Shown here in pieces: positions 14,248-58,043 of a stretch of DNA of 64,000 nt. How positions within the stretch are numbered: position 1 is the first letter of the stretch; every line of letters begins with the position of its first letter. The stretch comes from an uncultured Acidobacteriota bacterium (GTDB lineage: Bacteria; Acidobacteriota; Vicinamibacteria; Vicinamibacterales; CAVPJW01). The stretch spans positions 162,241 to 226,240 of the forward strand of contig CAWGYQ010000002.1 of NCBI GenBank assembly GCA_963826865.1, written 5' to 3'. The position numbers were made by a program, and so were the translations under genes. The notes under the pieces were generated by a model, which saw nothing but the letters and a program-made list of their open reading frames with translations, was not told the DNA's origin and ran no database searches.

Positions 14248-15691
14248 TCAGAACAGCGTCGAAATGGATTGAGCGGCGAGGGCAAGCACTCGCGTCGGCA
14301 GCACGCCGAGATACAGGACGAGCGCGACCGACACGCCGAGGGCCGCGCGCGGGCCGGTCGTCAGCGTCTGGGTCGGCGGTGCGACCACCGGATCGGCCAT
14401 GTACATCATGACGACGACGCGCAGATAGAAGAAGACCGCGACCACGCTCGTGAGGACGCCGACGATGGCCAGGCCGTAGGATCCGGTGCTGACGGCCGCC
14501 CCGAACACAGACCACTTGGCGACGAAGCCTGCGGTTGGCGGCACGCCGCCGAGGGACAGCAGGAAGATGGTCAAGAGGGCCGCCATGCCCGGACGGCTCT
14601 GCCAGAGTCCTGCGAAGTCCCGCAGGTCGTCGAATCGCCGCTCCTCGGATCCGAGGAGCGCGAGCACCCCGAAGGCGCCAAGGTTGGTCACGGCGTACGC
14701 GAGCAGATAGAACAGAATGGCACCCTTGCCCATCTCGTTGCCGGCGACGAGCGCGATGAGAATGTACCCGGCGTGCGCGATGCTCGAGTAAGCCAGCATC
14801 CGTCTCACGCTGGTCTGCGCCACGCCGACGACGGTGCCCAGGATCATGGTCGCCACCGCAATCGCTGACACGACGGGCGCCCAGTCGGGCCGGAGAGGCT
14901 CGAGGGCCGAGAGAAACACCCGGGCAAAGGCGGCGAACGCCGCGGCCTTTACGCCGGTCGACATGAAGGCCGTGACGACAGTGGGCGCCCCTTCGTACGC
15001 GTCAGGTGTCCACATGTGGAACGGCACGGCTGAAACCTTGAACGCGAACCCGACCAGGAGCAGCCCGAGCCCCAGGAGGACCAGTGGATCGTCCACCATG
15101 GCCTGCGCGGCCAGCGCGGTGCCGATGCGATCCAGGCGCGTGCTTCCGGACGTACCGTAGATGAACGCCACGCCGTAGAGAAAAAACGCGCTGGAAAAGG
15201 CCCCCAGCAGAAAGTTACTTGAACGCCGCCTCCGGGCCCCTGGCGGACTCCCGGCGAATGCCGGTCAGCACGTAGACGCCGATGGACAGCACCTCGAGCG
15301 CCAGGAAGATCACGAGTAGATCTGTCGCCGTCGCCATGAGAATCATCCCGCTCACGGTGAACAGCAGAAGGGCGTAGTAGTCACCCACCGGGAGCCGATC
15401 GCGATCGACGACACCCGCCGAGAGACCAACCGTGAGCGCGCCAACCAAGAGGATGATGAGCGTCGTGAAGAGGCCGAAATTGTCGGCGGCGACCACGCCG
15501 AAGCTGCTCGTCTGCCGGTCCCACAGCAGAATGGACACCGAGGCGGCGCCAGCAAAGCCGATCATGGCCAGGGCGCCCATCGGGGGACGCTCGTCGCCCT
15601 CCCGAAAGGCCTCGGCGATCATCGCGGCCAGGGCCGCCGCCACGACGCAGGTCATCGGGAAAACGGCGTTGAACGACGGAGCGATCATCAT
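14248..15691 (-). pseudogene. nuoN: NADH-quinone oxidoreductase subunit N, reading frame broken by a 1-nt insertion at 15214-15218
   Basis: Two ORFs (15691-15215 and 15211-14248) together give a full NuoN. The span is 1444 nt, i.e. 481 codons plus 1 nt. Coding strand reads ...GCG TTC AAG TAA C TTT CTG CTG GGG..., whereas the conserved motif is ...AAFKYFLLGAFSSAFFLYG. The ATG at 15691 overlaps the nuoM stop (ATGA). Confidence 0.85.
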
Positions 15692-17250
15692 CGGGTCCCC
15701 CGCTCCGTCGTGACGTGGATCATGTGCCCGTCGCCGGGACGCTGAACGCGGAAAGGCCGCTCGCCCTGCACGCGTCCCACCAGCCGCTCGACCGAGGCTT
15801 CCATCGGGCGGAGAAAGATCGCCGGAACGATCCCCATCAAGATCGCGACGACCACGGCAGGTATCAGCATCCACGCCTCACGCACGGACAAATCAGGCAG
15901 GTGGCGGTTCTTGTCGTTCGAAATGGTGCCGTAGTTGACGCGCTGGAACATCCAGAGCATGTAGACGGCGGAGAGCACGATACCGGATGCCGCGACGGCC
16001 GCCATCCACGGGTCCCACCGGAAGGCGCCGACCAGAATCAGGAACTCGCCGACGAAGCCGTTGAGACCGGGTAATCCGATCGACGACAACGTGATGAGGA
16101 GGAACACGGCCGTCAGGCGTGGCATCACCTGCTTGAGCCCGCCGAACTCGACGATGAGCCTCGTATGCCGGCGATCGCTCAGCATGCCGACGATGAGGAA
16201 GAGCGCGCCGGTGCTGACGCCGTGGTTGAGCATCTGGTACACGGCGCCCTGCACTCCCTGTACGTTCATCGCCGCGATGCCGAGCACCACGAACCCGAGG
16301 TGGCTCACGCTCGAATACGCGACGAGCTTCTTGAGATCGGGCTGGACCATCGCCACCAGCGCGCCGTACACGATGCCGATCACGGCCAGCCCGGCGAGGT
16401 AGGGCGCAAAATAGGTGCCGGCAATCGGAAACAACGGGAACGCGAAGCGGACGAACCCGTAGGTCCCCATCTTCAACAGCACGCCGGCCAGGATGACGGA
16501 CCCGGCGGTGGGCGCCTGCACGTGCGCGTCGGGCAGCCACGTGTGGAACGGGAAGAGCGGCACCTTGATGGCGAAGGCCAGACCAAAGGCCAGGAAGAGC
16601 CAGAACTGCACTCCCGGCGGGAGCGAAAGCTCCTGCAGCTTGAGGAGATCGAAGCTGAGGGCGCCGGTGGAGACCTGGTGAAAATAGCCGAGCGCGATGA
16701 TGGCCACGAGCATCAGCACGCTGCCCGCCATGGTGTAGAGGATGAACTTGACGGCCGCGTAGATGCGCCGGTCGTAGCCCCAGATCCCGATCAGAAAGTA
16801 CAGCGGGATCAGCATCGCGTCCCAGAAGAGATAGAACAGGAACAGATCGAGCGACACGAAGACGCCGATCATGGCGGCCTCGAGCACCAGCACCAGCGCC
16901 GAGAACTCGCGCACCTTCTTGTGCACCGACTCCCAGGACGACAGGAGCGCGAGCGGCGTGAGAAAGCCCGTCATCACGATCAGGAGCAGGCTGATGCCGT
17001 CGACACCCACGAAGTAGTCGACGCCGAAGGACGGAATCCAGGCGTGACGTTCCATGAACTGGAAGCCGCCCTCGGTGGGCACGAAGCGGTTCCAGAGCAG
17101 CAGCGTCTGCCCGAAGACGACCAGCGACACGAGGAGCGACACGCGTCGGATCAGGGTATTGCGGGACCCGTCGCGATTGCCGATGAGCAGCAGCATCACG
17201 GCTCCCAGCACCGGGACGATGACGAGCGAGGAGAGGATCGGAAATCTCAT
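15688..17250 (-). CDS. nuoM: NADH-quinone oxidoreductase subunit M
   Basis: 520-aa polytopic ORF of the ND4/NuoM family (…FHTWLPDAHVQAPTAGSVILAGVLLKMGTYG…). Lies between nuoL and nuoN. Confidence 0.9.
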   Translation of the reverse strand: MRFPILSSLVIVPVLGAVMLLLIGNRDGSRNTLIRRVSLLVSLVVFGQTLLLWNRFVPTEGGFQFMERHAWIPSFGVDYFVGVDGISLLLIVMTGFLTPLALLSSWESVHKKVREFSALVLVLEAAMIGVFVSLDLFLFYLFWDAMLIPLYFLIGIWGYDRRIYAAVKFILYTMAGSVLMLVAIIALGYFHQVSTGALSFDLLKLQELSLPPGVQFWLFLAFGLAFAIKVPLFPFHTWLPDAHVQAPTAGSVILAGVLLKMGTYGFVRFAFPLFPIAGTYFAPYLAGLAVIGIVYGALVAMVQPDLKKLVAYSSVSHLGFVVLGIAAMNVQGVQGAVYQMLNHGVSTGALFLIVGMLSDRRHTRLIVEFGGLKQVMPRLTAVFLLITLSSIGLPGLNGFVGEFLILVGAFRWDPWMAAVAASGIVLSAVYMLWMFQRVNYGTISNDKNRHLPDLSVREAWMLIPAVVVAILMGIVPAIFLRPMEASVERLVGRVQGERPFRVQRPGDGHMIHVTTERGTR

Positions 17251-17260
17251 GCGTTCCCGG

Positions 17261-19261: not shown

Positions 19262-19268
19262 GGCCGCA

Positions 19269-19565
19269 TCACCACTTGAGCGAGGTAAAGGCGTCGGGGT
19301 TGAGTGATTCGCGCACCCGGAAGAGCGCGATCACGATGGCCAGGCCGACAGCGGCCTCGGCAGCCGCCACGGTCATGACGAAGAACACGATGATCTGCCC
19401 GTCGAGCGAGCCGAGCGCCCGCCCGAAGGCCACGAACGCCAGATTGGTTGCGTTCAACATGATCTCGATCGACAGGAGAATCGTGATCAGGTTGCGGCGC
19501 AGGAACACGCCGGCCGTGCCGATAGCGAAGAGGACGCCGGAGAGTACCAGGTAGTGCGACAACAT
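19269..19565 (-). CDS. nuoK: NADH-quinone oxidoreductase subunit K
   Basis: 98-aa ORF with three TM segments (…IMLNATNLAFVAF…AAAEAAVGLAIV…). Its ATG overlaps the nuoJ stop. Confidence 0.9.
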   Translation of the reverse strand: MLSHYLVLSGVLFAIGTAGVFLRRNLITILLSIEIMLNATNLAFVAFGRALGSLDGQIIVFFVMTVAAAEAAVGLAIVIALFRVRESLNPDAFTSLKW

Positions 19566-20170
19566 CAGGCGTCCACCGATGGGCGCGGTGCTTCAGGCGC
19601 GGCACCCGGGACCTCGACCTCTTCCGGGGTGACGTCGCGAGGAGCCACCCGGACCTCGGTCCGGCGCGCGAGAACGACGGCACCCAGCATGGCGGTGAGA
19701 ATCAGCACGGATGTCACCTCGAACGCGAAGGCGTGCTCGGTGTACAGCCTCCGCCCGATCTCGGCAACGGATCCGAGGTCCGCGACCCCGTCGCTCGTCC
19801 CGCCCTGCGGAGTCACCTGGCTCACCCGCGTCAGCGCCCACCAGAGCTGCGCCGCCAGCACAGCCGCCAGCAGTGCGCCGAACTGACGAAGACCGCGCGC
19901 CTCCCGCACGACTTCACCGGGCACGTCCTCCGTGGGCGCGTTGAGCAGCATGACGACGAAGAGGAAGAGCACCATGATGGCGCCCGCGTAAATGATGATC
20001 TGGATGACCGCCACGAACGGGGCATCGAGGAGGACGTAGAGTCCTGTCAGACCGCCGAACGAAAGGATGAGGAGCAGGACGCTGTGGATCGGGTTGGGCC
20101 GACCGATGACGAGCAGCGACGCGCCAACCGTCACCGCCGCGAACAGGTAGAAGAGGAGACCTTCAGCCAC
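19565..20170 (-). CDS. nuoJ: NADH-quinone oxidoreductase subunit J
   Basis: 201-aa ORF of the ND6/NuoJ family (…FVAVIQIIIYAGAIMVLFLFVVMLL…). Its start overlaps the nuoH stop. Confidence 0.88.
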   Translation of the reverse strand: MAEGLLFYLFAAVTVGASLLVIGRPNPIHSVLLLILSFGGLTGLYVLLDAPFVAVIQIIIYAGAIMVLFLFVVMLLNAPTEDVPGEVVREARGLRQFGALLAAVLAAQLWWALTRVSQVTPQGGTSDGVADLGSVAEIGRRLYTEHAFAFEVTSVLILTAMLGAVVLARRTEVRVAPRDVTPEEVEVPGAAPEAPRPSVDA

Positions 20171-21191
20171 GGAAGTACAGAACTCCTGCAGCGGTCACCA
20201 GCAGGTTCAGGACCGCCAGCGGCAGCAGGACCTTCCAGCCGAAGTGCATCAACTGGTCGTAGCGGTAGCGCGGCAGCGTCCACCGCATCCAGACATAGAA
20301 AAACAGAATGGCGCCGACCTTCACCAGAAACCAGATCCACCCGAACGACTCGGGCAGCCACGGGCCGTGCCATCCGCCGAGAAAGAGATTGGTCGCCACG
20401 GCCGCCACCGTCACCATGTTCACGTACTCGGCCAGAAAAAACATGGCGAAGCTCATGCTGCTGTATTCGGTGTGGTATCCGGCGACGAGCTCCTGTTCCG
20501 CCTCGGGAAAATCGAACGGCGCACGGTTGGTCTCGGCGATTCCGGCCACCATGTAGACGAAGAACCCGAGCGGCTGCAGGAACAGGAACCATTTCGGCAC
20601 GATCCCGAACCAGGTGCCAGCCTGATCGTTCACGATGTCCCTGAGCGACAACGATCCGGCGATCACCAGCACCCCCGCCAGCGCCAGCCCGTACGACAGC
20701 TCGTAGCTGATCATCTGCGCCGACGATCGCAGCCCGCCGAGCAGCGAGTACTTGCTCGTCGAGCTCCAACCTGCGAGCACGATGCCGTAGACGCTCATCG
20801 ACGCGATGGCGAAGATGACCAGCATCGCCACGTTCACGTCGGCCACCTGCAGCGCGATCGGCTCGTCGAGCAGCCCGAACAGCGTGGTCTCGGCGCCGAA
20901 CGGCACGACGGCGAACGCTGCAAAGGCGCACGTGGCCGAAATGACGGGCGCCAGAAAGAAGACGACGTGATCGGCCGCGCGCGGCGTCAGCTCTTCCTTG
21001 AAGAGGAGCTTGACGATGTCGGCGAGCGGCTGGAGCATGCCCCGTGGCCCGACCAGGTACGGGCCGAGCCGCTGCTGAATCATGGCCGCGACCTTCCGCT
21101 CGACGTAGACCATCACCGCGGCGGAATTGAGGAGCATGAAGAAGACGAAGCCGAGCAGCCCGAGCTGGGCGATCACGGTGGCGTCCATCAC
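20163..21191 (-). CDS. nuoH: NADH-quinone oxidoreductase subunit H
   Basis: 342-aa ORF of the ND1/NuoH family (…ERKVAAMIQQRLGPYLVGPRGMLQPLADIVKLLFKEE…). The start may be the ATG at 21188. Confidence 0.92.
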   Translation of the reverse strand: MMDATVIAQLGLLGFVFFMLLNSAAVMVYVERKVAAMIQQRLGPYLVGPRGMLQPLADIVKLLFKEELTPRAADHVVFFLAPVISATCAFAAFAVVPFGAETTLFGLLDEPIALQVADVNVAMLVIFAIASMSVYGIVLAGWSSTSKYSLLGGLRSSAQMISYELSYGLALAGVLVIAGSLSLRDIVNDQAGTWFGIVPKWFLFLQPLGFFVYMVAGIAETNRAPFDFPEAEQELVAGYHTEYSSMSFAMFFLAEYVNMVTVAAVATNLFLGGWHGPWLPESFGWIWFLVKVGAILFFYVWMRWTLPRYRYDQLMHFGWKVLLPLAVLNLLVTAAGVLYFRG

Positions 21192-21212
21192 GCCCGATCC
21201 GATCCGTGCGCG

Positions 21213-22515
21213 TCAGTGGGCATGAACGGCCGTCCTGCCGCGCCAGTCGGCGACCAGCGGACACTGGCCCTCGCGAACGTGAGCCTCGGTACTCGGCCCT
21301 GAAGTGCTTCAGCGTCGTCAGGGCCGGCGTCGCAGCCGCGTCACCGAAGGCGCAGAGCGTCTTGCCCACGATGTTGTTCGCCACGCCTTCGAGGAGTGCG
21401 AGGTCGCTGGCACTGCCTTCGCCAGTCTCGATTCGGTGCAGGATCTTGTAGAGCCAGTCGGTGCCTTCGCGGCACGGTGTGCACTTGCCGCACGATTCGT
21501 GACGATAGAAGTGCAGCAGATTCTCGGCGAGCCAGACCATGCACGTCGTCTCGTCCAGCACGATGATGCCAGCCGATCCGAGCAGCGAACCCGCTTTCTG
21601 CACGGCATCAAAACTGGCTGGCACGTCGAGCTCGTGCGGCAGCAGCAGGGGCACGGACGATCCGCCGGGAATGACGGCCTTGAGACGGTGTCCGTCGCGA
21701 ACCCCGCCTGCGAAGCCGTCGATCAGCTCGCGGAGCGTCGTGTGCATCGACGCTTCGTACACGCCCGGACGCTTGACGTGCCCGCTCACGCAATAGAGCT
21801 TGGGCCCGCCGTTCTTCTCCGGGCCGAGCGCCGCGAAGGCCTCCGGCCCGCGCAGGAGAATGACGGGGACGTTGCAGAGCGTCTCGACGTTGTTCACCGC
21901 CGTCGGGCACTGATAGAGACCGGCGACGGCCGGGAACGGCGGCTTGATTCGCGGCTGCGCGCGCTTCCCTTCCAGCGACTCGAGCAGCGCCGTTTCCTCG
22001 CCCGCTTCGTACGCGCCCGCTCCGCGGTGCACGTAGATCTCGCAGTCGAAATCGGTGCCCAGGATGCCGCGGCCGGCATAGCCGGCGGCGTAGGCTTCCT
22101 CGATGGCGCGCTCGAGAACATGCTGCACGTGCATGAACTCGCCCCGGATGTAGATGTAGGCGATCTTGGCGCCGATCGCGTAGCAGCCGATGAGGCATCC
22201 TTCGAGCAGCAGGTGCGGATAGCGCTCCATCAGCACATGATCCTTGAACGTGCCCGGCTCGCTCTCGTCGGCATTGCAGGCGAGATATTTCGGTTGCGGC
22301 GTGTCCTTCAGCACGAATTGCCACTTCATGCCGGTGGGAAAGCCCGCACCGCCGCGGCCGCGGAGCCCGGACTGCTTCACGGCGTCGATCACCTGATCCG
22401 GCTTCATCGCCAGAGCCCGCTTGAGGCCTTCGTAGCCTTCGTGGCGCAGGTAGAAGTCGAGCGTGTAGGAACCAGGCTCGCGAACGAAACGCGTGAGGAT
22501 GGGCTCGAACGACAT
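21213..22515 (-). pseudogene. nuoF: NADH-quinone oxidoreductase subunit F, frame broken near the 3' end by a 1-nt insertion at 21288-21292
   Basis: N-terminal 410 aa are canonical NuoF (GLRGRGGAGFPTGMKW, ESCGKCTPCREG). After ...TLKHFRAEY the frame leaves the conserved HFRxEYEAH(I/V)xEGxCP ending. That ending (EAHVREGQCPLVADWRGRTAVHAH-stop at 21213) is present in the +1 frame. The span is 1303 nt, i.e. 434 codons plus 1. The 794-aa ORF in the track is read-through across nuoH caused by this shift. Confidence 0.85.
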
Positions 22516-22541
22516 CGGGCTTCAGGCTCCAGGCTTCGTGA

Positions 22542-24325: not shown

Positions 24326-24327
24326 GC

Positions 24328-24912: not shown

Positions 24913-24931
24913 CGCGAGCGCGCTCTCCCCC

Positions 24932-25480: not shown

Positions 25481-25530
25481 GTCGAAGCTCGGCGGGCCGG
25501 CCGGGTGCGCAGGTCGGGCCCGCGGGAACG

Positions 25531-26007: not shown

Positions 26008-26020
26008 GCGCCGGCGCGGA

Positions 26021-33612: not shown

Positions 33613-36600
33613 ATGAGCCGTACGCCTCCGCCGGAGGGTCCGCTCGACGTCTTCCATCCCTCGGTCGCCACCTGGTTCCGGACAACCCTGGGCGTCCCGA
33701 CTTCCCCGCAGACACTCGGATGGCCTGCCATCGCGCGCGGCGAGTCGACGTTGATCCTGGCTCCCACCGGCACGGGGAAGACCCTGGCCGCCTTCCTGTG
33801 GGCCGTCAATCGGTTGATGTTTTCGCCGCCGCCAGCCTCGCGCGAGCGCTGCCGGATTCTCTATGTTTCTCCGCTCAAGGCTCTCGCGGTTGATGTCGAA
33901 CGCAATCTGCGCCGGCCGATCGAAGGCATTGCCAGAATCGCACGCGACAGCGGAGTCAATCCGGTCCTGCCCACGGTCTGGGTGAGGACCGGCGACACTC
34001 CGCCGCGCGAACGCGCGCGGTTCGAACGCCATCCCTCGGACATCCTGATCACGACGCCCGAGTCGCTCTATCTCCTGCTGACCTCGAATGCGCGGGAAGC
34101 GCTCGTTTCGATCGACACGGTGATCGTCGACGAGATTCACGCGCTCGTGCCGACCAAGCGCGGCGCCCACCTTGCGCTGTCGCTCGAAAGACTCCAGGCC
34201 CGCTGCCGGCGCGCGCCGCAGCGCATCGGGTTGTCGGCCACACAGCGGCCGCTGGACGAGGTGGCGCGGTTTCTCGGTGGCACCGATCGTTCTGCACCCG
34301 GCGCCGCCTGGCCGGGCCCAGAGCCCCGAATCGCCGACGATGACCCGGCAGTCGACTATCGCCCGGTGACGATCGTCGACGCCCGCGAGCCCAAGAGGCT
34401 GGCACTCAGGATCGAGGTGCCCGTCGAAGAGGTCGCGGTCGCTCGCGCGGGAGCGCCCTCAATCTGGGCCGCCATTCATCCCAGGCTGCTCGATCTCATT
34501 CGGAGCCGCCGCTCCACGTTGATATTCGTCAACAACCGCCGGCTTGCCGAGCGGCTGGCAGGCGCGCTGAACGATCTGGCGGGCCAGGTGCTGGCGCGCT
34601 CGCACCATGGATCGATCGCCCACCCCCAGCGCCTCGAGATCGAGGAGGCGCTCAAGGAAGGGCGGCTGCCGGCACTCGTCGCGACCTCGTCCCTTGAGCT
34701 CGGCATCGACATGGGGGCCATCGACCTCGTCGTGCAGATCGAAGCGCCCCCGTCGGTCGCCAGCGGGCTGCAGCGGATCGGACGGAGCGGTCACCACGTG
34801 GGCGCCGTCAGCGAGGGCGTCATTTTTCCTAAGTTCCGCGCGGATCTGCTGGCGTCGGCCGCCGCCACACGTGCGATGCGCCGCGGCGAGGTGGAGGCGG
34901 TCCGGTATCCCCGCCGTCCACTCGACGTGCTGGCGCAGCAGGTGACGGCAATGGTGGCCATGGACGACTGGGACGTGTCGGAGTTGTTCGACACCGTTCG
35001 CCGCGCCGCCCCGTTTGCCGGACTCGACCGCGAGATCTTCGACGGCGTGCTGGACATGCTCTCGGGCCGGTACCCCTCGGACGAATTCGCCCAGCTCAGG
35101 CCGCGGCTCACATGGAACCGGACGCGCCAGAGGCTGACCGCCAGGGAAGGCGCGCGGCGAGTGGCGGTGGTCAACGGCGGCACGATTCCCGATCGCGGAC
35201 TCTACGGCGTGTTCCTGATTGGCGGAGGTCAGGGAACGGCTCGCGTGGGCGAGCTGGACGAGGAGATGGTGTTCGAGAGCAAGGTCGGCGAAACCTTCGT
35301 GCTCGGGGCGTCCACCTGGCGAATCGAAGAGATCACGCACGACCGCGTGCTCGTGTCACCTGCTCCAGGACAGGCAGGCAAGATGCCCTTCTGGCGCGGC
35401 GATCGGGCCGGGCGGCCCGCGGAGTTCGGACAGGCCATCGGGTGCTTGACCCGCGAATTGAGCGCCGCACCGGACGTCGAGGCCATTGCCCGTCTCGTCG
35501 ATCACCATGATCTCGACGCGCGGGCGGCGACCAGTCTCGTGCAGTACCTCCGCGAGCAGGCCGTCGCGAGCCTGATTCCCGACGATCGCACCATCGTCAT
35601 CGAGCGATCGCGCGACGAGCTGGGCGACTGGCGGGTCGCGATCCTGTCGCCATACGGAGGGCGCGTGCACGCACCGTGGGCAATCGCCCTCTCCGCAAAG
35701 CTCCGCCACGAGCTGGGCATGGACGTCGAGACGCTGTGGAGCGACGACGGTCTGGTGGTGCGGTTGCCGGAGGCCGCAACGCCACCCGATCCGGGTGTGA
35801 TGGTGCCGGACGCGAACGAGATCGATCGGCTTCTCCTGCCGGAGCTCGCTTCTACGGCGCTCTTCGCCGGGAAATTTCGCGAAGCTGCGGCACGGTCGCT
35901 CCTTCTGCCACGCCGCCAGCCTGGTCGTCGCACACCGCTCTGGCAGCAGCGCCGGCGCGCAGCCGACCTGCTGGCGGTTGCCTCGAGGCACCGGTCGTTC
36001 CCGGTGTGGCTCGAGACATATCGCGAATGTCTGCTCGACGTATTCGACATGCCCGCCCTCAAGGATCTACTGAGCGCGGTGGCCAGCGGGAACATCAGCG
36101 TTCGATCGGTCGAGACCGGCCGCCCCTCTCCGTTTGCCGCCTCGCTGCTCTTCGGCTACGTCGCCAACTTCATCTACGAAGGCGACGCGCCGCTCGCCGA
36201 GCGCCGGGCACAAGCGCTGTCGGTCGATCAGTCGCAACTCAGGGAACTGCTCGGCGATGCCGAGCTGCGCGATCTGCTCGACCCTCGCGCCATTGCCGAC
36301 ATGGAACGCGAGCTGCAGTGCCTCGACGAGCGTTATCAGGCGCGACACATGGACGGCGTGCACGACCTCCTGCTTCGCATCGGCGACCTGACTCGCAACG
36401 AGCTGGGTGATCGTCTGGCGTCTCCTGAGCTGATGTCGGCCGTTGACGACCTGATGAGCGCAGGCCGGGCCGTTTCGCTCGTCATCGCCGGCGAGCCCCG
36501 TTTCGTGGCCATCGAGGACGGCGCGCGCTATCGCGACGCGCTCGGCTCTGTGCTTCCTGCGGACTTGCCCGAGGGGCTGAGCCGACCCGTTGCCGATCCT

Positions 36601-38119
36601 CTGGGCGATCTCGTCCTCCGGTACGCGCGCACACACGGTCCGTTTACCGAGCACGAGTGCGCGCTCCGGTTCGGGATCGACTCATCGGACGTTCGCCGCG
36701 TGCTGACGCGGCTCGTGGACGGCGGTCGCATCGTGGAAGGCGAGTTCAGGCCCGGGAGAAGCGGCCGCGAGTGGTCCGGGGCGGAAGTCCTCCGCCGCAT
36801 CCGGCGACGCTCGCTGGCAAAGCTCCGGCACGAAATCGAGCCGGTCGATACGTGCGCCCTCACCCGGTTTCTCGTGGAGTGGCACGGTCTCGTGCGCCCG
36901 CGGCCCGGTGTGGAGGCGCTGCTCGACGCCGTCGAGCAGCTTCAAGGCGCGCCGCTGTCGGCGTCGATCCTCGAAGCTGAAATCCTCTCCCGGCGCGTGC
37001 GGGCCTATGAACCTTCGGACCTCGACACGCTCATTGCTTCCGGCGACGTGGTGTGGATGGGGCTCGAGCCGATCGGTGAGCGGGATGGTCGCATTGCGCT
37101 GTACTCTGACCGCCACGCTCCCCGCGCTAATGCGGCGGCCATCGACCGATCCGCTGGATCGCCGCGAGACGCTCATCGTCGAGCACCTGAAGGCGCGGGG
37201 CGCATCGTTTTTCGCGGAGCTGCACCAGGCATCTGGCGGCGGCTACCCGGCCGAGACGGTGGGAGCGATCTGGAGTCTCGTGTGGAAGGGCCTGCTCACC
37301 AACGACACCTTGCAACCGCTCCGAACGTTTGTCCGGAGGCCCGAGCCGCGTCGTCGTCGCGAGGCCGATGAGGCCATCGCGGCTCGACCGCGCCGTTTTT
37401 CGCCGCCTTCCACCGAGGGACGCTGGTCGCTCGTCGGCTCGCGCGTGACGGGAACGGTTTCCGCCACCGAATGCCTGACGTCGCTCGCCCGCGCCTTGTT
37501 GACCCGATACGGCGTGCTCACGCGCGAGGCAGTCCTCGCCGAAGGGATCGAGGGAGGCTATACCGCCGTTTATCCGGCCCTCAAGGCGATGGAAGAACTC
37601 GGACGCATCCGCCGCGGGTATTTCGCCGAAGGGCTGGGCGCCACGCAGTTTGCGCTGGCATCCGCGCTCGAGCTTCTTCGCTCACATCGTGATCCGGTCG
37701 ACCTGCCGCAAACGGTGCACTTGGCCGCGACCGATCCTGCCAATCCGCACGGAGCCGTCGTCCCGTGGCCGCCTGCACCGCGAGCCGAGGCCAGCCTCGA
37801 AGACGCGCCACGCAGGGCCCGCGACGTCGGCGCCAGCGTGATCCTGGTCGATGGTGCGGTCGGTGCGTATCTTGGACGCGGCGGCCGGCAACTGCTGGTC
37901 TACCTGCCCGACGACGAGCCGGGGCGCTCACGGGTGGGCTGGGAGGTGGCGCGCGTGTTGATGGATATCGCGCGCGACGGCGTGGACGGGCGCCCGGGCA
38001 TGTTGATCGGCGAAGTGAACGGCCTGAGCGCGTTCGACCACCCGCTCGCGCCGTTTCTCGCGAGGGCCGGATTCGTCAGAACCGCGCTGGGCTACCAGGC
38101 GCGCTTCGCCGCGTCTTGA
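33613..38119 (+). pseudogene. lhr: Lhr-family ATP-dependent DEAH-box helicase (about 1501 aa), frame broken by a 1-nt insertion near 37101-37105
   Basis: ILAPTGTGKTLAAFL (Walker A), VIVDEIHAL (DEIH), HHGSIAHPQRLEIEEALKEGRLPALVATSSLELGIDMG, plus a long Lhr C-terminal region. The ORFs 33613-37371 and 36908-38119 overlap. The protein-like sequence switches frame at ...GERDGRIALY / LTATLPALMRRPSTDPLDRRETLIVEHLKARGASFF. The span is 4507 nt, i.e. 1502 codons plus 1. Confidence 0.85.
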
Positions 38120-43558: not shown

Positions 43559-43612
43559 GAACACCCCTCGAGAACCACGCGTTGGACGCGCCACGCTGAC
43601 GACAGCCACGAG

Positions 43613-45865: not shown

Positions 45866-47970
45866 ATGCGCCGACTCGTGGGGCTCACCAGCCTGGGCGT
45901 GGTCCTGGCGAGCGCATCGATGCTGCCAGGCCGTGCCGCTGTCCAGGCGCAGCCGCCCGCTCCTTCCGCGCTTCAAGCACCCTCTGAAACCGATCCCGCT
46001 CCGGCGACAGCACCGCAACCGCTGGACGCGCGATCCCCGCGGAACGCGAATTACTCGATCGACGTTCGCCTCGATCCCGAGACCCGCACGCTGACCGGCC
46101 GCGAGGTGATCACGTGGCGGAACATCACGACACGCGCCACGTCGGAGTTGCAGTTCCATCTCTATTACAACGCGTGGAAGAACACGAGCTCCACGTGGAT
46201 GCGTGAGCGTCTGATGTCCGGAGGTCGCAGCGAGCTGGCGCGGCGGCCGGCGGAGGACTGGGCCTGGACCGAGGTGTCCGCCGTCCGGTTGCTCAGCGAC
46301 AACGCGGCGCCGTTCATCGACCTCACATCGGGCAAGCGCTACAGCGCGCCCGATGACGGGAATCCGCTGGATCAGACGGTGATGGTGGTGCCGCTGCCGA
46401 AGGCCGTCCAGCCAGGCCAGACGATTCGTGTGGAAGTGGCATGGACGACCAAGATTCCGCGCCCGTTCGCTCGAACCGGCGTGATCGGCGACTACTACTT
46501 CATCGTGCAGTGGTTTCCCAAGCTCGGCGTCCTCGAGGAAAAGGGCTGGAACTGTCATCAGTTTCACGCGTCGACCGAGTTCTTTTCCGACTTCGGGGTC
46601 TATGACGTGCGGATGACGGTGCCGAACGGCTGGATGGTCGGCGCAACCGGCACCGAGCGCCGCCGAACCGACAACCCCGATGGCACCACGACGCACGAGT
46701 ACAGCGAAGCGGATGTGCACGACTTCGCCTGGACGACGAGCCCCCACTATCTGGAACGGCGCGCGCGGTTCGAGCACCCAACGCTGCCCGCCGTCGACAT
46801 GCGGCTGTTGTTCCAGCGTGAGCACCTGGGACAGGAAGATCGCCACTTCGAGGCGACACGGGCCGCCTTGCGCTATTACGGCGAGTGGTTCGGCGCGTAT
46901 CCCTACGGTCATGTCACCGTGGTCGATCCCGCTTATCAGAGCGGCGCCGGGGGCATGGATACCCGACGCTCTTCACGGCAGGCACGCGGTGGCTGGCGCC
47001 GAGCAGGGTGACGCAGCCAGAAAGCGTCACCATCCACGAGGCCGGCCATCAGTTCTGGTATGGCATCGTCGCCAACAACGAGTTCGAGCACGCGTGGCTG
47101 GACGAGGGGCTGAACACCTTTTCGACCGCCCGGGTCATTCAGCAGGCGTACGAGCCGAATTTCATGGTGAGGCGCTACTTTGGAGGATTCATCCCCTACG
47201 TGTTCCGGGACATTCCTGTCTCGCGTGCGACGGACAACAACCGGCTGACCGGCTTCAGGCCGTCGGCCGAAGCCGATGCCCAGCTCACACCGACTTATCG
47301 GTACTGGGCGGACACGGCCGGCGACATCACCTACAACAAGACGGCGCTGTGGCTCAACACGCTGGAGAACATGCTCGGCTGGCCGACGCTTCAGCGCATC
47401 CTGTCCACCTTCTTCGTACGCTGGCAGTTCCGTCACCCCGAGCCCGAGGATTTTTTCAGCGTGGCCAACGACATCAGCGGCCAGGATCTGACGTGGTTCT
47501 TCGATCAGGTGTACCGGAGCTCGAACGTGTTCGACTACGCCATCGAGGAACTCGAAAGCGAATCGGCCTCTGGCGTGGGGCTCTTCGATCGGGACGGCGA
47601 ACGCCGGTATCAGGGCGCCGGCGGCACGCCATCGATGTTTCGCACCCGCGTGGTAGTTCGGCGGCACGGTGAGGCGGTCTTTCCCGTGGACGTCCTGGTC
47701 GTGTTTCAGAACGGCGAGCGGGTGCGTGAGCGCTGGAACGGCCGTGACCGCTGGACGATGTTCAACTACGAGCGAGCCAGCCGGGCCGCGTACGCGCAAG
47801 TCGATCCCGATCGCACGCTGCTCCTCGACATCAATTACACGAACAACAGCCTGTACGCTCACGCCACGCACCGCGCAGGCCACGAACAAGTGGATGTTGA
47901 AATGGCTGATCTGGATGCAGGATTGTCTGATGACCTACGCGTTCTTCGTGTAGGGGCACGCCAGGCGTAG
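45866..47970 (+). pseudogene. secreted M1-family zinc metallopeptidase (about 701 aa), frame broken by a 1-nt deletion at 46958-46962
   Basis: Signal peptide MRRLVGLTSLGVVLASASMLPGRAAVQA. The upstream ORF ends in ...VDPAYQSGAGGM. The downstream frame continues (E)YPTLFTAGTRWLAP...TIHEAGHQFWYGIVANNEFEHAWLDEGLNTF (HExxH + E). The span is 2105 nt, i.e. 702 codons minus 1. Confidence 0.85.
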
Positions 47971-51820: not shown

Positions 51821-51858
51821 TGAGGTGGGGAGATTCTATCCTACCCGGCGACCCGAAC

Positions 51859-51887
51859 TTGCCGGGGGGCGGGCCGTGACATAGAAT
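51859..51887 (+). promoter_or_regulatory. candidate promoter of the 1231-aa TLC-HEAT-cNMP gene; its -10 is one arm of an 8-bp inverted repeat
   Basis: TTGCCG (51859-51864), 17-nt spacer, TAGAAT (51882-51887). GATTCTAT (51832-51839) and ATAGAATC (51881-51888) are exact inverted copies. Confidence 0.3.
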
Positions 51888-52065
51888 CGCGCGAACCCGC
51901 AACGCGTTCGGTCAGCCAGCACGCCGTCCGCGGGCACACTTTGCAGGGCCATGATCGACCCCGTAGAGACTCCGCGCCCGCTCCAGCCTGTCTGGTCGCG
52001 GGCCTCACTGTGACGCCAGCGGTCCCCGGGCCCATCACCACTTCTCACCTACGGAGCCGCGCTCT

Positions 52066-55000
52066 ATGAAGGGATCTCTGCTCCGCCGCATTCTGACTCC
52101 CGTCGCCCAGCTCCGGGACGAGGAGGCGCAGACGGCGCTGATGATGTTCGCCTATTCGTTCCTGGCGATGACCTCGTACAACATCATCAAGCCCATCACG
52201 CGCTCGAAGTTCATCGAAGGTCTCGGGGCGGACAACCTGCCACTCGTGCAGCTCGGCGCCGGGCTGCTCATCGGCATCATCATGCAGGGCTATGCCAAGG
52301 CCGTCGGCGTGCTGCCCCGCCGGTGGGTCATCCCCATCACACAGGCCGGCATGGCCGGCATCATGCTGCTGTTCTGGGCGCTCTTCCAGACCGGCGCCGC
52401 GTGGGTTCCTGTCGCGTTCTATCTCCTCGGCCTCATTCTCGGCATTCTGCTCATCAGCCAGTTCTGGACGCTTGCCAACGACATCTACGATCCCCGGCAG
52501 GCCAAGCGCGTGTTCGGATTCATCGGCGGCGGAGCAAGCCTCGGCGGCATCCTCGGGTCGGCCATTCTCACCTTCTTCGTCGACGAGGTCGGCACCGTCA
52601 ATCTGCTGCTGATCAGCACGGTTGGACTCGGGCTGTGCATGGCGCTCGTCACGGCGATTGTCGCGCGTGAGAAGTCGGCGGGCGCGAGCGGTCCGGCCAC
52701 GGGTGAGGAGAAAGGCGTGGGCTGGGGCGAAGCGCTGAAGCTGCTGCGCGAGTCGAGGCACCTGCAGACGATCGCGCTCGTCATCGCGTTCGCCGCCATC
52801 GGCGCCGCCATCATCGAGCAGCAGCTCAATCTGGCGGCCGCCGCGGCCAAGGGCAGTGGCGGCACCGACGCCATCACCGCGTTCCTCGGGACCGTCCAGC
52901 TGTACACCTCGATCATCGGCTTCGTCGTCCAGGTCTGGCTGACCAGCCGCATTCACCGGTATCTCGGCATCGGATTCGCTCTGCTCGTCCTTCCGGTCAG
53001 CCTCGGCGCCACGGCCGTCGTGATTCTGGTGACGCGGGCGCTCTGGGCGCCCGGCCTCGCGCGGGTGCTCGACACCTCGCTGCGCTACACGGTGGACAAG
53101 ACCACGCGAGAGGTGCTGTTTCTACCGCTTCCGACCAACCTCAAATACCAGGCGAAGCCCTTCGTGGACGTCACCGTCGATCGCTTCGCGAAGGCTCTCG
53201 GCGCGTTGCTCTGCCTGGTTCTGATCAAACCGTGGGGCCTGAACCTTCCCTGGCCCGAGCTGAGCTACGCCAGCCTCGTGATGACGGGTCTGTGGGTGTT
53301 GATGTCCATCCGCGCCCGCCGCGGCTATTTGCTCGCCTTCCGCAAGAGCATCGAGCAGCGGGACGTCGTCCCCACCGATGTGCGGCTGAACGTCGCCGAT
53401 CTGTCCACGGTCGAAACGCTCGTCGAAGAGCTGTCGAACCCCGATCCGCGCCGCGTGCTGTACGCGATCGAGCTGCTCGAATCGCTCGACAAGCGGAACC
53501 TGATCACGCCGTTACTGCTGCATCACGGCTCCGAACAGGTGCGTGCGCGCGCCCTCGCAGCGCTCGAAGGAGCTCGGCCCGACGTGGCGGAGCGATGGCT
53601 GCCGGCGATCGAACGGATGCTGAAGGACCCGAGCGCCGACGTTCGGGCTGCAGCGGTCCGCGCGCTTTCGGCGATCCGCCGGGAAGACGTCTCACCCTTG
53701 ATGCGGAAGTACCTCGAAGATCGGGATCCGCGGGTGATGGTGACGGCCGCCGTGGCACTCGCCGACAGCTCCAATCCAGACGAGGTGAAGGCCGCGGAGG
53801 CGGCGCTGAAGACGGTGACCGCCGACACACGCCAGGTCACCGCCGCCGCGCGGAGAGAAGTGGCGAGCGCCGTGGCGCGCATCAAGAACCCGGACCTGCA
53901 ACACCTGCTCATTCCTCTTCTCTACGACTCGGATCTGGGCGTCGCGCAGGAAGCCATTCGCAGCGCGAAGATCATGGCTGGCAACCATGCGCTGCTGCTG
54001 CCGCCGCTCATCTCGCTCCTGCGCAACCGGCGGCTCAAGCCGCAGGTCCGCGAAGTGCTCGTCAGCTACGGGGAGGAAGTCGTCGACGTTCTCGGCTATT
54101 TCCTGCACGACACCGAGGAGGATATTTGGGTGCGCCGGCATATCCCCGGCACCCTGGCGCTGTTTCCCACTCAGAAGGCGATGGATATGCTCGTCACGGC
54201 CCTCGACGATCCCGACGGCTTCCTCCGGTACAAGGTAGTAGCCGCCATGGAGAAGCTGCGCCGCGACCACGAGGGTCTCACGATTGCGCGCGAGCCCATC
54301 GAGCGGCTGGCAGTCAAGGAAGCGAGCCGGTATTCCAACTACCTGACGCTGCGCTACAACCTCTTCAAGGCCAAGCCCAACGACTCGCTGCTCGCACGCG
54401 CGCTGACCGAGAAGCTCGATCGCACGGTGGATCGCGTCTACCGGCTGCTGGGACTCGTCTACCCGTGGAAGGACATCGCCGCTGCGCGCTGGGCGATCGA
54501 TCACGGGGACGCCCGGGCGAGCGCGAGCGCCAGCGAGTACCTCGACAACCTGCTCACGGGCCCACTTCGCAAGCGCGTCCTACCGGTTCTGGAGGAACTG
54601 CCGATCGACGAGAAGGTGCGCAAGGCCAATCTGTTTCTGCGCTCCCGACAACGGGACGCCGAGGAGACGCTGGCCCAACTCGTGGCCGACGAGGATCAGG
54701 TGGTGGCCGCCTCCGCCATTCATTACGTCGAGCAGACGAAACTCTGGAAGCTCGCCGACGACCTCGAACACGCGCTGGCGTTCCGCGATGTCAAGGACTG
54801 GTACGTCTTCGAAGCCGCGTCCTGGGCCCTGGCCGCATATCGGTTGCCGGTCGAGAAGCGCCGCGCGCTCTGGATGGAGCCGCTGCCCGCCGTCGAACTG
54901 GCCGACCGCCTGCGACACATCCCGCTTTTCGACTTCGTCTCGGTCGACGAGCTGTTCCGCATCGCCGGCATCGGCCGCCAGGTGCGCCACGAGAGCGGAC

Positions 55001-55761
55001 GCGTGCTCTACCAGCAGGGGGCGCCCGCCGAAGAGTTGCAGTTCCTGCTCGATGGCAAGGTGTCGATCGTGGAGAAAGACGGAGCGCCGCATGAACTGGA
55101 GGCCCCGGCGGCCCTGGCGTTCGAGGGAGTCCTCGAGGGAAGCCCGGTGCCGGCCACCGTCCGCGCCGTGGACGTGGCGATCGGCCTGGCGCTGAACATC
55201 GAAGAGTTCATGACGCTGCTCTCCGACAACACGCTGCTCGCGCAGGGGCTGTTCCGGATGCTGATGGCCAAGCCGTCGGCCACCGGATGGCGCACCGTCG
55301 TGCGTGCCGCGGCTGCGCCGGCTCCCGAGAGCACCAACCTCTCGCTCACCGCCATCGACGAGGTGCTCGTGCTGCACGGCGTGCCGGTGTTCCGACGCGC
55401 CTCACCGGAGCAGCTGCTGGCGCTCGGCCGTATCGCGGATCAGGTCCTGCTCGCCGACGGGGCGCAGCTGTTCGCCGAGTCGGATCGGGCCGCCATCTAT
55501 ACCGTGATTGCCGGTGAGGTCACGCTCGAGGGCGCCGGACTCTCCACGACCAAAGCGGGACCAGGCGATACCTTTGGCGTCTTCGAGACCCTCGGATTCG
55601 AGCGGGCCGGGTGGAAGGCACGGGTGACGAAGCCCGGACAGGCCCTCAGGATCGACAGGGAGGAGCTCTTCGATCTGCTGGGCGAGCACATGGACCTCCT
55701 GCAGGGTATTTTTTCGGCGCTTCTGCGAATCGAGGCGGCCGAACCGGTCTCGACCCCTTGA
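52066..55761 (+). CDS. TLC (ATP/ADP-translocase-like) transporter domain fused to HEAT repeats and two C-terminal cyclic-nucleotide-binding domains
   Basis: 1231-aa ORF (ATG). N-terminus LRDEEAQTALMMFAYSFLAMTSYNIIKPITRSKF plus about 12 TM segments. The central region has HEAT units (…HGSEQVRARALAAL…, …DPSADVRAAAVRAL…, …DRDPRVMVTAAVAL…). Two cNMP-type domains begin HIPLFDFVSVDELFRIAGIGRQV (about 54900) and HGVPVFRRASPEQLLALGRIADQV (about 55370). Confidence 0.75.
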   Translation: MKGSLLRRILTPVAQLRDEEAQTALMMFAYSFLAMTSYNIIKPITRSKFIEGLGADNLPLVQLGAGLLIGIIMQGYAKAVGVLPRRWVIPITQAGMAGIMLLFWALFQTGAAWVPVAFYLLGLILGILLISQFWTLANDIYDPRQAKRVFGFIGGGASLGGILGSAILTFFVDEVGTVNLLLISTVGLGLCMALVTAIVAREKSAGASGPATGEEKGVGWGEALKLLRESRHLQTIALVIAFAAIGAAIIEQQLNLAAAAAKGSGGTDAITAFLGTVQLYTSIIGFVVQVWLTSRIHRYLGIGFALLVLPVSLGATAVVILVTRALWAPGLARVLDTSLRYTVDKTTREVLFLPLPTNLKYQAKPFVDVTVDRFAKALGALLCLVLIKPWGLNLPWPELSYASLVMTGLWVLMSIRARRGYLLAFRKSIEQRDVVPTDVRLNVADLSTVETLVEELSNPDPRRVLYAIELLESLDKRNLITPLLLHHGSEQVRARALAALEGARPDVAERWLPAIERMLKDPSADVRAAAVRALSAIRREDVSPLMRKYLEDRDPRVMVTAAVALADSSNPDEVKAAEAALKTVTADTRQVTAAARREVASAVARIKNPDLQHLLIPLLYDSDLGVAQEAIRSAKIMAGNHALLLPPLISLLRNRRLKPQVREVLVSYGEEVVDVLGYFLHDTEEDIWVRRHIPGTLALFPTQKAMDMLVTALDDPDGFLRYKVVAAMEKLRRDHEGLTIAREPIERLAVKEASRYSNYLTLRYNLFKAKPNDSLLARALTEKLDRTVDRVYRLLGLVYPWKDIAAARWAIDHGDARASASASEYLDNLLTGPLRKRVLPVLEELPIDEKVRKANLFLRSRQRDAEETLAQLVADEDQVVAASAIHYVEQTKLWKLADDLEHALAFRDVKDWYVFEAASWALAAYRLPVEKRRALWMEPLPAVELADRLRHIPLFDFVSVDELFRIAGIGRQVRHESGRVLYQQGAPAEELQFLLDGKVSIVEKDGAPHELEAPAALAFEGVLEGSPVPATVRAVDVAIGLALNIEEFMTLLSDNTLLAQGLFRMLMAKPSATGWRTVVRAAAAPAPESTNLSLTAIDEVLVLHGVPVFRRASPEQLLALGRIADQVLLADGAQLFAESDRAAIYTVIAGEVTLEGAGLSTTKAGPGDTFGVFETLGFERAGWKARVTKPGQALRIDREELFDLLGEHMDLLQGIFSALLRIEAAEPVSTP

Positions 55762-55907
55762 TCCTGATCCGGACAGAGGTTCCGCGGTCCGTGGACGGGG
55801 GTACTCGACCTCTCGGCGGCTGGCGTTCCGCGCTATACTGCGCGCCGATCATATCAAGCTCTCCGGGCATTCCCCGTGGGCATGTCATCAAATTGCGGAG
55901 GTACTGC

Positions 55908-56735: not shown

Positions 56736-56776
56736 GCATCGCCGGACGCGCGGTCGACACGCGGGGGCACGAACGA

Positions 56777-58043
56777 TCAGTTCTGACCGGCGGGCTGCGG
56801 AACGGGCGGATCGATCTGCACGGTCGAGTCCAAGTACAGCGCGGTGACGCGGCCGTCTAGAATTTCCAGAGCTGACGCGCGCCCGCCCGTGTAGTGGCTC
56901 ACGAGCATGCCCGTGTCGATGAGGAACACGCGCCGCTGGAACCTGGGCGTGATGCGCCCGGACGCCGGCACGGTGTGCCCCACGACGATGCGATTGACAT
57001 GCTGGCCCTGGAGAATCGGCCCGATCTCCCGGGCGCCCTGCTCTGCGGTCCACAACGCGTAGCCACGGAACCAGAGCGGACCATCCTCGCGCACCACGGA
57101 CCATTCGCGAATCGCCTGCAGGCTGCGCATCACTTCAAGGTGTGCGGCGTCGAACACCCCGATCCCCGGCGCCAGATCCAGCGCCGACGGCTGTTTCGCC
57201 GCTGCGGCCGCGAGCGATTTCTCGGCTTCCAGGGCTTCGAGTATCTGGTTGATGTCGAACCACGGCAGAATCACCTTGCGATCGACGAGATGCCGGCGGG
57301 CTTCGTCGAGGTTCTTGATTTCCTTCTGCACCTGACGGCTCAGCGTGTCCGGTTTTTCCCCAGCCAGACGCGGGCTGATCCCACCGTGAAGAAAGAGCGT
57401 ATCGTCGATCTGTACCACGGTCTCCCGGGAACGCAGCCAGCGGCCATACTTGCCGTCGGGCCCAAGCGCCTCGACGTTACTCGAGATAGCCCGGGGGATG
57501 CGCCTCCATCCACTCCTCTTTGGAAGGCACCTGATAGATCTTCGGCGGATTCGAAAACACCTTCTGTCTCGCCCGGCAGAACTCGGCGTATCTCTCGTAC
57601 GCCTGATCGCGGCGCGCCAGCGAACCCTCGTCTGCGAAACTCTCGTATGCGGCCGGCGGCACATCGTGCAGGTCGCCGATGAGGTTCATCGTCTCGTGGT
57701 TGCCGAGCAGCGGGATCACGCGTCCACCGCTCGCTGAAGCCTGCTGTTCGAGAGCCATCAGCAGGTCGAGCGCGGCGCGCACCTGGGGGCCGCGATCCAT
57801 GACATCGCCGGTCTGGACCATGATGGTCGATCCGCCGATCCACCGGCGCGACGCATCGGTCAATCCGATCTTCTGGAGGATCTCCGCGAAGCTGTCCGCG
57901 TCTCCATGGATGTCGCCAATACTGACAACCCGGAGACTGGCCGGCGTCCGGCCCTTCATCGGGAGGCCTGGCCCCTGGCTCTGCGCGACGGCGGCCGTCG
58001 CGAACAGTGTCAGCGCCACGATTCCGACTGTCAGGCCACGCAT
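56777..58043 (-). pseudogene. secreted calcineurin-like metallophosphoesterase (about 421 aa), frame broken by a 1-nt insertion at 57476-57480
   Basis: Signal peptide MRGLTVGIVALTLFATAAVAQS. Motifs GDIHGD, GDVMDRG and GNHE lie in the upstream ORF, which ends ...HPPGYLE-TAA. The downstream frame continues VEALGPDGKYGRWL...LFLHGG...VVGHTV. The span is 1267 nt, i.e. 422 codons plus 1. Confidence 0.8.

Follow-up and report, generated by a model that had tools for sequence, protein, structure and literature searches.

All six reading-frame breaks found in the window, the 64-kb stretch of DNA analysed here, are single-base indels that lie within a GTAC tetranucleotide or directly adjoin one, and we read them as systematic long-read consensus errors at GTAC that probably arose through a modification of this motif in the lineage, a reading to which we assign as a whole a probability of about 0.75. 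That the breaks are artefacts, absent from the organism's DNA, is nearly certain; that a modification of GTAC, which we infer, is their cause is probable. The window is DNA of a soil bacterium of the Vicinamibacterales (Acidobacteriota) and most probably comes from a long-read-only MAG assembly (Nanopore R10.4.1 with Flye and Medaka).

Results

Six Frame Breaks in Five Genes

The preliminary description of this DNA had placed five conserved genes, each broken by one single-nucleotide indel, on GTAC. Three-frame translation agreed with it at all five positions, the conserved protein going on in another frame each time, and all five do sit on the motif. The count was nevertheless incomplete, as a sixth break at 47852 also lies against GTAC, and the pattern of one indel per broken gene holds for nuoN, nuoF, lhr, and the metallophosphoesterase but not for the M1 peptidase, which has two. 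The genes and their breaks are as follows:

14248..15691, minus strand: nuoN, complex I subunit N; one lesion, 480 aa when repaired
15214..15218: nuoN break, GTTAC; +1 T inside GTAC (G[T]TAC), interrupting ..AAFK / YFLLGA..
21213..22515, minus strand: nuoF, complex I 51 kDa subunit; one lesion
21288..21292: nuoF break, GGTAC; plus strand with one extra G immediately before GTAC (+1), coding strand GAGTAC[C]GAG
33613..38119, plus strand: lhr, large helicase-related protein whose C-terminal part is AlkZ-like; 1501 aa repaired
37101..37105: lhr break, GTAC[T]CTG; extra T after GTAC, interrupting ..RIALY / LTATLPAL..
45866..47953, plus strand: M1-family peptidase; two lesions, repaired 695 aa with C-terminal ..MTYAFFV
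46958..46962: first M1 peptidase break, GA-TAC; -1, the G of GAGTAC gone, interrupting ..GAGGME / YPTLF..
47852..47856: second M1 peptidase break, the sixth of the window; extra T directly 5' of GTAC, AGCC[T]GTACG
56777..58043, minus strand: Calcineurin-like metallophosphoesterase; one lesion, 421 aa repaired
57476..57480: metallophosphoesterase break, GTTAC; +1 T inside GTAC, interrupting ..PGYLE / YVEALG..

The broken genes are unrelated housekeeping genes, subunits of complex I among them.

The breaks were placed at nucleotide level with the DNA of a sister genome, consisting of the loci L079, L163, and L162 on one contig, which spans positions 5599-64000 of the window at ~95% DNA identity. 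At six of six places GTAC and the reading frame are unbroken in this genome; compared with it, the window carries one extra nucleotide at five sites, and at the remaining site the G of GTAC is missing. The six indels fall within GTAC or directly adjoin it, and the orthologue alignments put none of them several nucleotides away; nucleotide runs at the sites are one or two bases long. The DNA of the relatives also bears out the finer claims made from the letters alone: the signs of the indels (+1 in nuoN, nuoF, lhr, and the metallophosphoesterase and -1 at 46958 in the M1 peptidase), the T inserted at the GT^AC centre in nuoN and the metallophosphoesterase, and the guess that the base lost from the M1 peptidase was the G of a GAG glutamate codon.

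In nuoN, where L079 reads AAGTA-CTTT and the window AAGTAACTTT, the frame switch was seen with tblastn queries from 14 related loci, and the repaired protein matches Pfam Proton_antipo_M over positions 1-292 of 294, spanning the break. The nuoF break (GAGTAC-GAGG in L079, GAGTACCGAGG in the window) lies 24 codons ahead of the stop; the frame change is backed by 43 loci, and the repaired protein contains Complex1_51K plus NADH_4Fe-4S (2-85 of 85). At the lhr site, L163 has CTGTAC-CTGACC and the window CTGTACTCTGACC. We dropped L161 as the sole reference for this gene: it has CTGTA-TTTGACC there, and since it reads GTATTTG and contains ~60 indel errors in 21 kb, the site was ambiguous until the better relative L163 settled the placement. 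The C-terminal 539 aa of the repaired lhr product are 99-100% covered by homologues named Lhr-like helicase. For the metallophosphoesterase, L162 has GAGTA-CGTC against GAGTAACGTC in the window, and its orthologue P0121 is unbroken at 437 aa; the repaired protein is recognized as Pfam Metallophos and covered 97-100% by homologues.

The two lesions of the M1 peptidase are supported separately. At the first, L161, L162, and L163 all have GGAGTACCC in place of GGA-TACCC, 65 loci support the frame change, and Peptidase_M1 (3-217 of 218) runs continuously over the break once repaired. At the second, a relative reads AGCC-GTACG, and the opposite strand of L162 and L163 reads GCGTAC-GGCTG. The insertion at 47852 leaves the last 33 codons in the wrong frame, a frame change supported by about 50 loci; more than 50 metagenome homologues have an end of the form ...NNSxTLxPR..KWxLKW..FFV-stop that the window encodes in the other frame, and with the repair made the C terminus agrees with the homologues.

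Comparison with the relatives revealed no further coding frameshift in 5599-64000, and Pfam domain coverage and codon statistics gave no sign of one in 1-5598. A separate 4-nt difference at 38124-38126 affects the final codons of a molybdopterin oxidoreductase; it is away from GTAC, and both relatives agree against the window. Both relatives also differ from the window at 43582, again away from GTAC, but we rejected this indel as a coding frameshift because it precedes the likely start codon of a diaminopentanoate dehydrogenase-like gene. At 61.5-63.6 kb the frame changes three times in a row on one strand, but this reflects three distinct genes (DUF4149, GAF, and Iso_dh). Finally, the first homology screen, which used all long ORFs of the related loci as queries, gave false frameshift calls (that at 20200, for example), because at 66% GC an alternative frame can continue without a stop into the neighbouring gene; in the repeat screen, the related-locus ORFs were filtered by codon statistics before use as queries.

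Association with GTAC

The repaired window contains 162 GTAC sites, with an observed/expected ratio of 0.93. The motif with one flanking base makes up 1.49% of the bases, and the probability of finding six of six breaks there is 1.1e-11. Judged post hoc, six sites drawn at random would have one tetramer or another in common with a probability of 8.9e-5, a figure driven by common GC-rich words; of the 136 tetramer classes, only 31 match GTAC in rarity. At the same time, only six of the 162 sites are broken (3.7%), and the other 156 read in frame. Comparison of the two groups gave no wider consensus around GTAC. Three of the six broken sites are GAGTAC, yet other GAGTAC(G) sites are unbroken, and the 9-mer GAGTACGAG is unbroken at two other places. 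With so few sites broken and identical 9-mers spared, the trigger is not simply the motif. Differences from the sister genome of the type GTAC versus GTGC/GCAC represent synonymous GTA/GTG wobble and are uninformative on substitution errors; GTAC conservation against this genome is not below average.

Frameshifts in Related Genomes

We compared the proteins of the window by tblastn with 80 related loci, 25 of them (nuo loci) from Microflora Danica and 55 from other MAGs. The Microflora Danica MAGs are Nanopore-only and were assembled with Flye and one polishing round of Medaka 1.8.0 using the model r1041 (PMC12313526). Across the 377 kb of coding DNA aligned in their 25 loci we counted 63 frameshifts, ~1.7 per 10 kb, against 2 doubtful ones in 635 kb among the 55 other loci; within the same order, Vicinamibacterales, the rate is thus ~50 times higher in the Nanopore-only MAGs. 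The two nearest relatives of the window come from the ENA assemblies ERZ25039555, a Microflora Danica Nanopore-only MAG, and ERZ25039469, in which the contigs are named in the style of Flye and indel errors are numerous.

GTAC was found within 5 nt of 12 of the 63 Nanopore frameshifts, where 4.6% would be expected, an approximately four-fold excess (P = 2.7e-5). Of the eight frameshifts peculiar to the sister genome, three lie at the motif (G[G]TAC, GTAC-TG, and GG[G]TAC; P = 1.8e-4), and L161 shows the GTAC-linked errors GG[T]TACG and GAGTAC[C]TGG. In L009, nuoD is broken as GAGTAC[C]GAGG, the same error as in the window's nuoF and in an identical 9-mer, which in the window's own nuoD is unbroken. 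In all, GTAC-linked frameshifts occur in at least nine Nanopore MAGs from differing samples. Their share varies strongly between loci (2/2 events in L009, 3/8 in L020, 1/13 in L028, 0/5 in L019, and 0/3 in L011), and this unevenness among error-rich loci is more easily reconciled with a lineage-specific modification than with a weakness common to all genomes. Further recurrent contexts of the Nanopore frameshifts are GCATC, GAGAC, and GATC, which we take to resemble recognition sites of restriction-modification systems.

Discussion

Motif-specific consensus error was also the reading preferred in the preliminary description, and the single lesions, the excess of frameshifts in Nanopore MAGs, and the recurrence of GAGTAC[C]GAG all argue for it. 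In this lineage, GTAC would be base-modified (6mA, 4mC, or 5mC); the modification would be foreign to the models of the basecaller and polisher, the signal at GTAC would be misread, and ~4% of the sites would emerge from the consensus with one base surplus or missing. Misreading by basecaller and polisher would account for the clustering of the breaks on the motif.

Consensus errors of Nanopore assemblies that are caused by modification, bound to a motif, and specific to a lineage are on record, with GCAGC and GCTGG in Listeria (PMC10687267) and ambiguous positions in Klebsiella (PMC11610573). Like these, the errors described here follow one short motif, are lineage-specific, outlast read-pileup polishing, and are missing from short-read assemblies and relatives. 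Unlike them, they are single-base insertions and one deletion, and their modification is a deduction, whereas the published errors are mainly substitutions and indels were ascribed to homopolymers (PMC10687267). It counts against the modification reading that the lesions are indels and that no run at them exceeds two bases. A modification of a kind that the models handle badly, unlike plain 6mA or 5mC, could account for indels instead of the usual substitutions, and such a modification of GTAC, for example 4mC or a bulkier adduct, may be common to several species of the Vicinamibacterales clade, although we hold this extension to be decidedly improbable. The main text of the Nanomotif preprint mentions neither GTAC nor Acidobacteriota. 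The homopolymer indel errors of long-read-only assemblies are similar in that one-base indels fragment well-conserved genes at a platform-dependent rate, but the errors in the window follow a palindromic tetranucleotide and not run length.

The artefacts could also have arisen without any modification, from a basecaller or polisher that is weak at certain GTAC-containing k-mers in high-GC DNA. The low fraction of affected sites, the differing outcomes at identical 9-mers, and the spread of GTAC-linked frameshifts over MAGs from differing samples would all suit such a weakness, and so would the lack of a methyltransferase or restriction-enzyme domain among the ~52 genes of the window (Pfam), a 64-kb part of a multi-megabase genome. 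We still regard it as unlikely, given that the error-rich loci L019, L011, and L028 of the same order show few or no events at GTAC and that the other recurrent contexts resemble restriction-modification recognition sites. In addition, we know of no report of a GTAC-specific weakness for well-studied genomes without GTAC methylation, which counts against this explanation. GTAC is the recognition word of known restriction-modification systems of the RsaI, CviQI, and Csp6I types, and a methyltransferase of this sort would supply the presumed modification. What differs is that the window holds no such methyltransferase or endonuclease gene and that GTAC is not avoided in it; with no depletion, composition gives no pointer to a GTAC restriction system.

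If the lesions were real, they would be recent inactivating mutations, either scars left where an RsaI-like enzyme cut its own genome at GTAC and the ends were rejoined imprecisely, or products of a mutational hotspot at GTAC. The extreme association with the motif and the two insertions at the GT^AC centre are what one would look for, but the indels are placed in four different ways (on the 5' side of GTAC, at its centre, on its 3' side, and removing its G), which does not fit a single cut site. The genes show no relaxed conservation, and nuoN, nuoF, lhr, and the metallophosphoesterase contain one lesion each. Genuine pseudogenes were rejected likewise: the lesions are not shared and the relatives are intact at the sites, the coding sequence on both sides of the lesions is ~95% identical to the relative with no signs of decay, and full Pfam domains return after adding or removing one base. 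Six lesions per 64 kb would, moreover, mean hundreds of broken housekeeping genes genome-wide. With the lesion class ~50 times commoner in Nanopore-only MAGs and an identical k-mer error found in a different gene of a second genome, real mutation is very unlikely. Programmed recoding, by ribosomal frameshifting or transcriptional slippage restoring the frame at GTAC, is close to excluded. Every break is at a Tyr codon TAC after a G-ending codon, and, as at the prfB and dnaX sites, a frame change is needed for the full product. The orthologues in the sister genome and dozens of others are simply in frame, though, with no conserved frameshift site; the sites in the window lack a slippery run, lie in unrelated genes, and require both +1 and -1 corrections, and the same tetranucleotide is read in frame at 156 other places. 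The low rank given earlier to cleavage scars and recoding is thus upheld by the four indel positions and the in-frame orthologues.

The breaks are best treated as artefacts, and in the annotation of this organism nuoN, nuoF, lhr, the M1 peptidase, and the metallophosphoesterase ought to stand as intact genes, not as pseudogenes. If miscalling affects ~4% of GTAC sites throughout the genome, several hundred false frameshifts are to be expected at this genome size, with inflated pseudogene and gene counts, truncated database proteins, and skewed estimates of completeness and metabolism; the same quality warning applies to other Nanopore-only MAGs of the order. One modest biological outcome is that a DNA modification specific to GTAC may be common to the clade. 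Should such a clade-wide modification exist, the frameshift patterns of long-read MAGs could reveal, from the assemblies by themselves, which motifs are modified in uncultured lineages.

Six Frame Breaks at GTAC

The preliminary description listed five frame breaks in the window, all at GTAC. At each of them the sequence was as described, and three-frame translation showed that the conserved protein runs on in another frame. We aligned the sites with DNA of two relatives: a sister genome (contig CAWFOC010000012.1 = ERZ25039555 contig_9434, MAG MFD06229.bin.2.236), which is 94.7–95.2% identical to the window and whose pieces L079, L163, and L162 jointly span window 5599-64000, and L161 (ERZ25039469), spanning window 26562-47818. 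The alignments placed the indels on or directly against GTAC, exact to the nucleotide, and confirmed the guess that the base missing from the M1 peptidase gives back GAGTAC. The placement at GTAC held, but the count of five did not. For every one of the 80 M1 peptidase homologues from metagenomes, the match ends near residue 662 of the once-repaired protein, and the window encodes the homologues' C-termini (..NNSxTLxPR..KWxLKW..FFV*) in a different frame. The frame switch at 47852, a sixth frameshift, again lies directly against GTAC.

Frame breaks in the window and the corresponding DNA of relatives
15214-15218, nuoN: relative AAGTA-CTTT, window AAGTAACTTT
21288-21292, nuoF: relative GAGTAC-GAGG, window GAGTACCGAGG
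37101-37105, lhr: relative CTGTAC-CTGACC, window CTGTACTCTGACC
46958-46962, M1 peptidase, first break: relatives GGAGTACCC, window GGA-TACCC
47852, M1 peptidase, second break: sister genome AGCC-GTACGCT, window AGCC[T]GTACGCT
57476-57480, metallophosphoesterase: relative GAGTA-CGTC, window GAGTAACGTC

The repaired window contains 162 GTAC sites and the raw window 159 (observed/expected 0.93). With one flanking base, GTAC covers 1.49% of the window, and the probability of six hits in six is 1.1e-11. Six sites drawn at random would have some tetramer in common with a post hoc probability of 8.9e-5, a figure that stems almost wholly from very common GC-rich words; of the 136 tetramer classes, only 31 match GTAC in rarity. 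Only 3.7% of the GTAC sites in the window are affected. The remaining 4-bp palindromes are, like GTAC, close to expectation, except for CTAG, which is scarce throughout the window (10 observed vs. 41.5 expected, ratio 0.24).

Gene Content and Search for Further Breaks

With a G+C content of 66%, the window carries ordinary housekeeping genes. It belongs to an Acidobacteriota bacterium (order Vicinamibacterales), and its best-matching loci are all MAGs of this group.

Genes of the window from left to right, assigned from Pfam
Block 1: pth, ribosomal protein L25, prs, GHMP kinase, TPR protein, heptosyltransferase, O-antigen ligase-like protein, PfkB kinase, purH, cold-shock protein, selA
Block 2, complex I operon: nuoA-B-C, SIS-domain gene, nuoD-E-F-H-J-K-L-M-N
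Block 3: glycosyltransferase, GAF/Ser-Thr kinase, FMN-dependent dehydrogenase, lhr
Block 4: molybdopterin oxidoreductase with fdhD, PLD-family protein, diaminopentanoate dehydrogenase-like protein, P450, DinB-family protein, M1 peptidase
Block 5: two large TLC/HEAT-repeat proteins, metallophosphoesterase, transketolase-like protein, others

Among the Pfam assignments of the 64-kb window there was no DNA methyltransferase or restriction enzyme. The complex I operon (19269-26386) is missing nuoG and nuoI from the cluster and has an unrelated SIS-domain gene (24328-24945) between nuoC and nuoD. At 49061-55761, two large paralogue-like genes transcribed divergently (919 and 1231 aa) each join HEAT repeats to a TLC/MFS-type transporter region, and the 1231-aa one has cyclic-nucleotide-binding domains as well; this unusual architecture is kept in the sister genome. 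The presence of selA (selenocysteine synthase, 12852-14195) and of a molybdopterin oxidoreductase adjoining fdhD (38092-41141) suggests that the organism may have a selenocysteine-containing formate dehydrogenase.

The search for further frameshifts joined a codon-statistics frame scan, codon-filtered ORFs of 160 related loci, nucleotide alignments with relatives, and Pfam domain coverage. The remaining unpaired indels in the sister-genome alignments were intergenic, kept the frame, or broke the reading frame of the relative alone; the last group falls in nuoM, purH, the PfkB kinase, a PI3/PI4-kinase-like gene, the FMN dehydrogenase, lhr, the diaminopentanoate dehydrogenase-like gene, and the M1 peptidase. 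Region 1-5598 is without a close relative, and its Pfam coverage looks complete. Neither of two further differences is at GTAC. One spans 4 nt, with substitutions (38124-38126), and lies in the molybdopterin oxidoreductase gene (38092-40314, minus strand), three codons from its end; the protein ends ..EPLRDVDRQDAAKRAW* in the window and ..EPLREGG* in both relatives, which could be real 3'-end divergence or another type of assembly error. The other is a single T (CGCGTTGGACG) at 43582 that both relatives lack; it precedes the likely start codon of the diaminopentanoate dehydrogenase-like gene by ∼18 nt and is noncoding by the relatives' gene calls.

Frameshifts in Related Assemblies

The deciding control was a tblastn search of 80 related loci from the surroundings of the nuo operon, with the repaired proteins of the window as queries. 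Of these loci, 25 came from Microflora Danica MAGs, which rest on Nanopore-only metagenomes put together with Flye and given a single round of polishing in Medaka 1.8.0 (model r1041; PMC12313526); they contained 63 frame changes in 377 kb of aligned coding DNA. The other 55 loci, from further MAGs whose contig names point to MEGAHIT or SPAdes short-read assemblies, contained 2 doubtful ones in 635 kb. Such frameshifts therefore belong to the platform, not the lineage.

The motif recurs in independent assemblies: GTAC was within 5 nt of 12 of the 63 Microflora Danica events vs. 4.6% expected (P = 2.7e-5). In the related locus L009, nuoD reads GTCGAGTACCGAGGAC, with the extra C of the window's nuoF in an identical 9-mer; the 9-mer GAGTACGAGG is intact in the window's own nuoD. 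In L041, nuoD is broken at CTGTACCTG, which is also the context of the lhr break in the window. In the sister genome, three of eight frameshifts were at GTAC (P = 1.8e-4; FMN dehydrogenase G[G]TAC, lhr GTAC-TG, M1 peptidase GG[G]TAC), and L161 has errors at the motif in GG[T]TACG and GAGTAC[C]TGG. Hits on the same k-mers in different genes and genomes, and only in assemblies of one platform, would not be expected of real mutations. The share of GTAC is uneven: most events were at GTAC in L009, L020, L027, and L013, and few or none in the error-rich Nanopore loci L019, L011, and L028.

Contexts containing GCATC, GAGAC, or GATC (for example, GAAGCATCGCG, CGCAGCATCGTC, GACGCATCGTC, and CGAGACGCC) were also recurrent at frameshifts in Nanopore-only Vicinamibacterales MAG loci (L009, L011, L013, L020, L028, L033, L048, L049, and L079). 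Such recurrence suggests additional error motifs particular to individual genomes, which may be modification motifs; the words resemble restriction-modification recognition sequences. The public 21-kb contig L161 (ERZ25039469 contig_158362) is a very error-rich assembly with ∼60 single-base insertions and ∼8 deletions relative to the window; its lhr is called as five fragments, and its protein fragments sit in the public protein collection (e.g., P0001).

Origin of the Frame Breaks

Each lesion is a single base, both flanks stay ∼95% identical to the relative, and adding or removing one base gives back full-length domains in the broken genes. The lesions do not look like gene decay. Together with the platform control and the recurrence of GTAC elsewhere, their single-base nature supports the motif-specific consensus error initially preferred, and we consider the six breaks artefacts of sequencing and assembly, of a generally known kind (probability about 0.95), slightly unusual in that the indels are at a nonhomopolymeric palindrome. 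We reject cleavage at GT^AC followed by imprecise rejoining: the indels fall at four different places with respect to the motif, six scars in 64 kb would imply hundreds of broken housekeeping genes, and the platform control argues against real lesions. Programmed recoding is likewise rejected, as the orthologues show no change of frame and recoding would require corrections in both directions (+1 and −1).

The most likely cause is base modification. Modifications new to the basecalling model disturb the current signal and cause recurrent miscalls at the same loci that pile-up polishing is unable to clear, and the loci concerned share a lineage-specific motif (PMC10687267; PMC11610573). The errors described in these studies are mostly substitutions, whereas the window lesions are indels. 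The uneven share of GTAC among error-rich Nanopore loci fits modification, and GTAC is therefore probably modified in this clade. A weakness for the GTAC context independent of any modification is a live rival that we regard as unlikely. At 42259 and 23762 the 9-mer GAGTACGAG is undamaged. Which sites fail must therefore depend on the broader context, on coverage, on strand balance, or on partial modification.

In practice, the six lesions call for repair or flagging, and a frameshifted gene in a Nanopore-only MAG of Vicinamibacterales should not be taken as a pseudogene. The sole biological lead is a possible clade-wide modification of GTAC.
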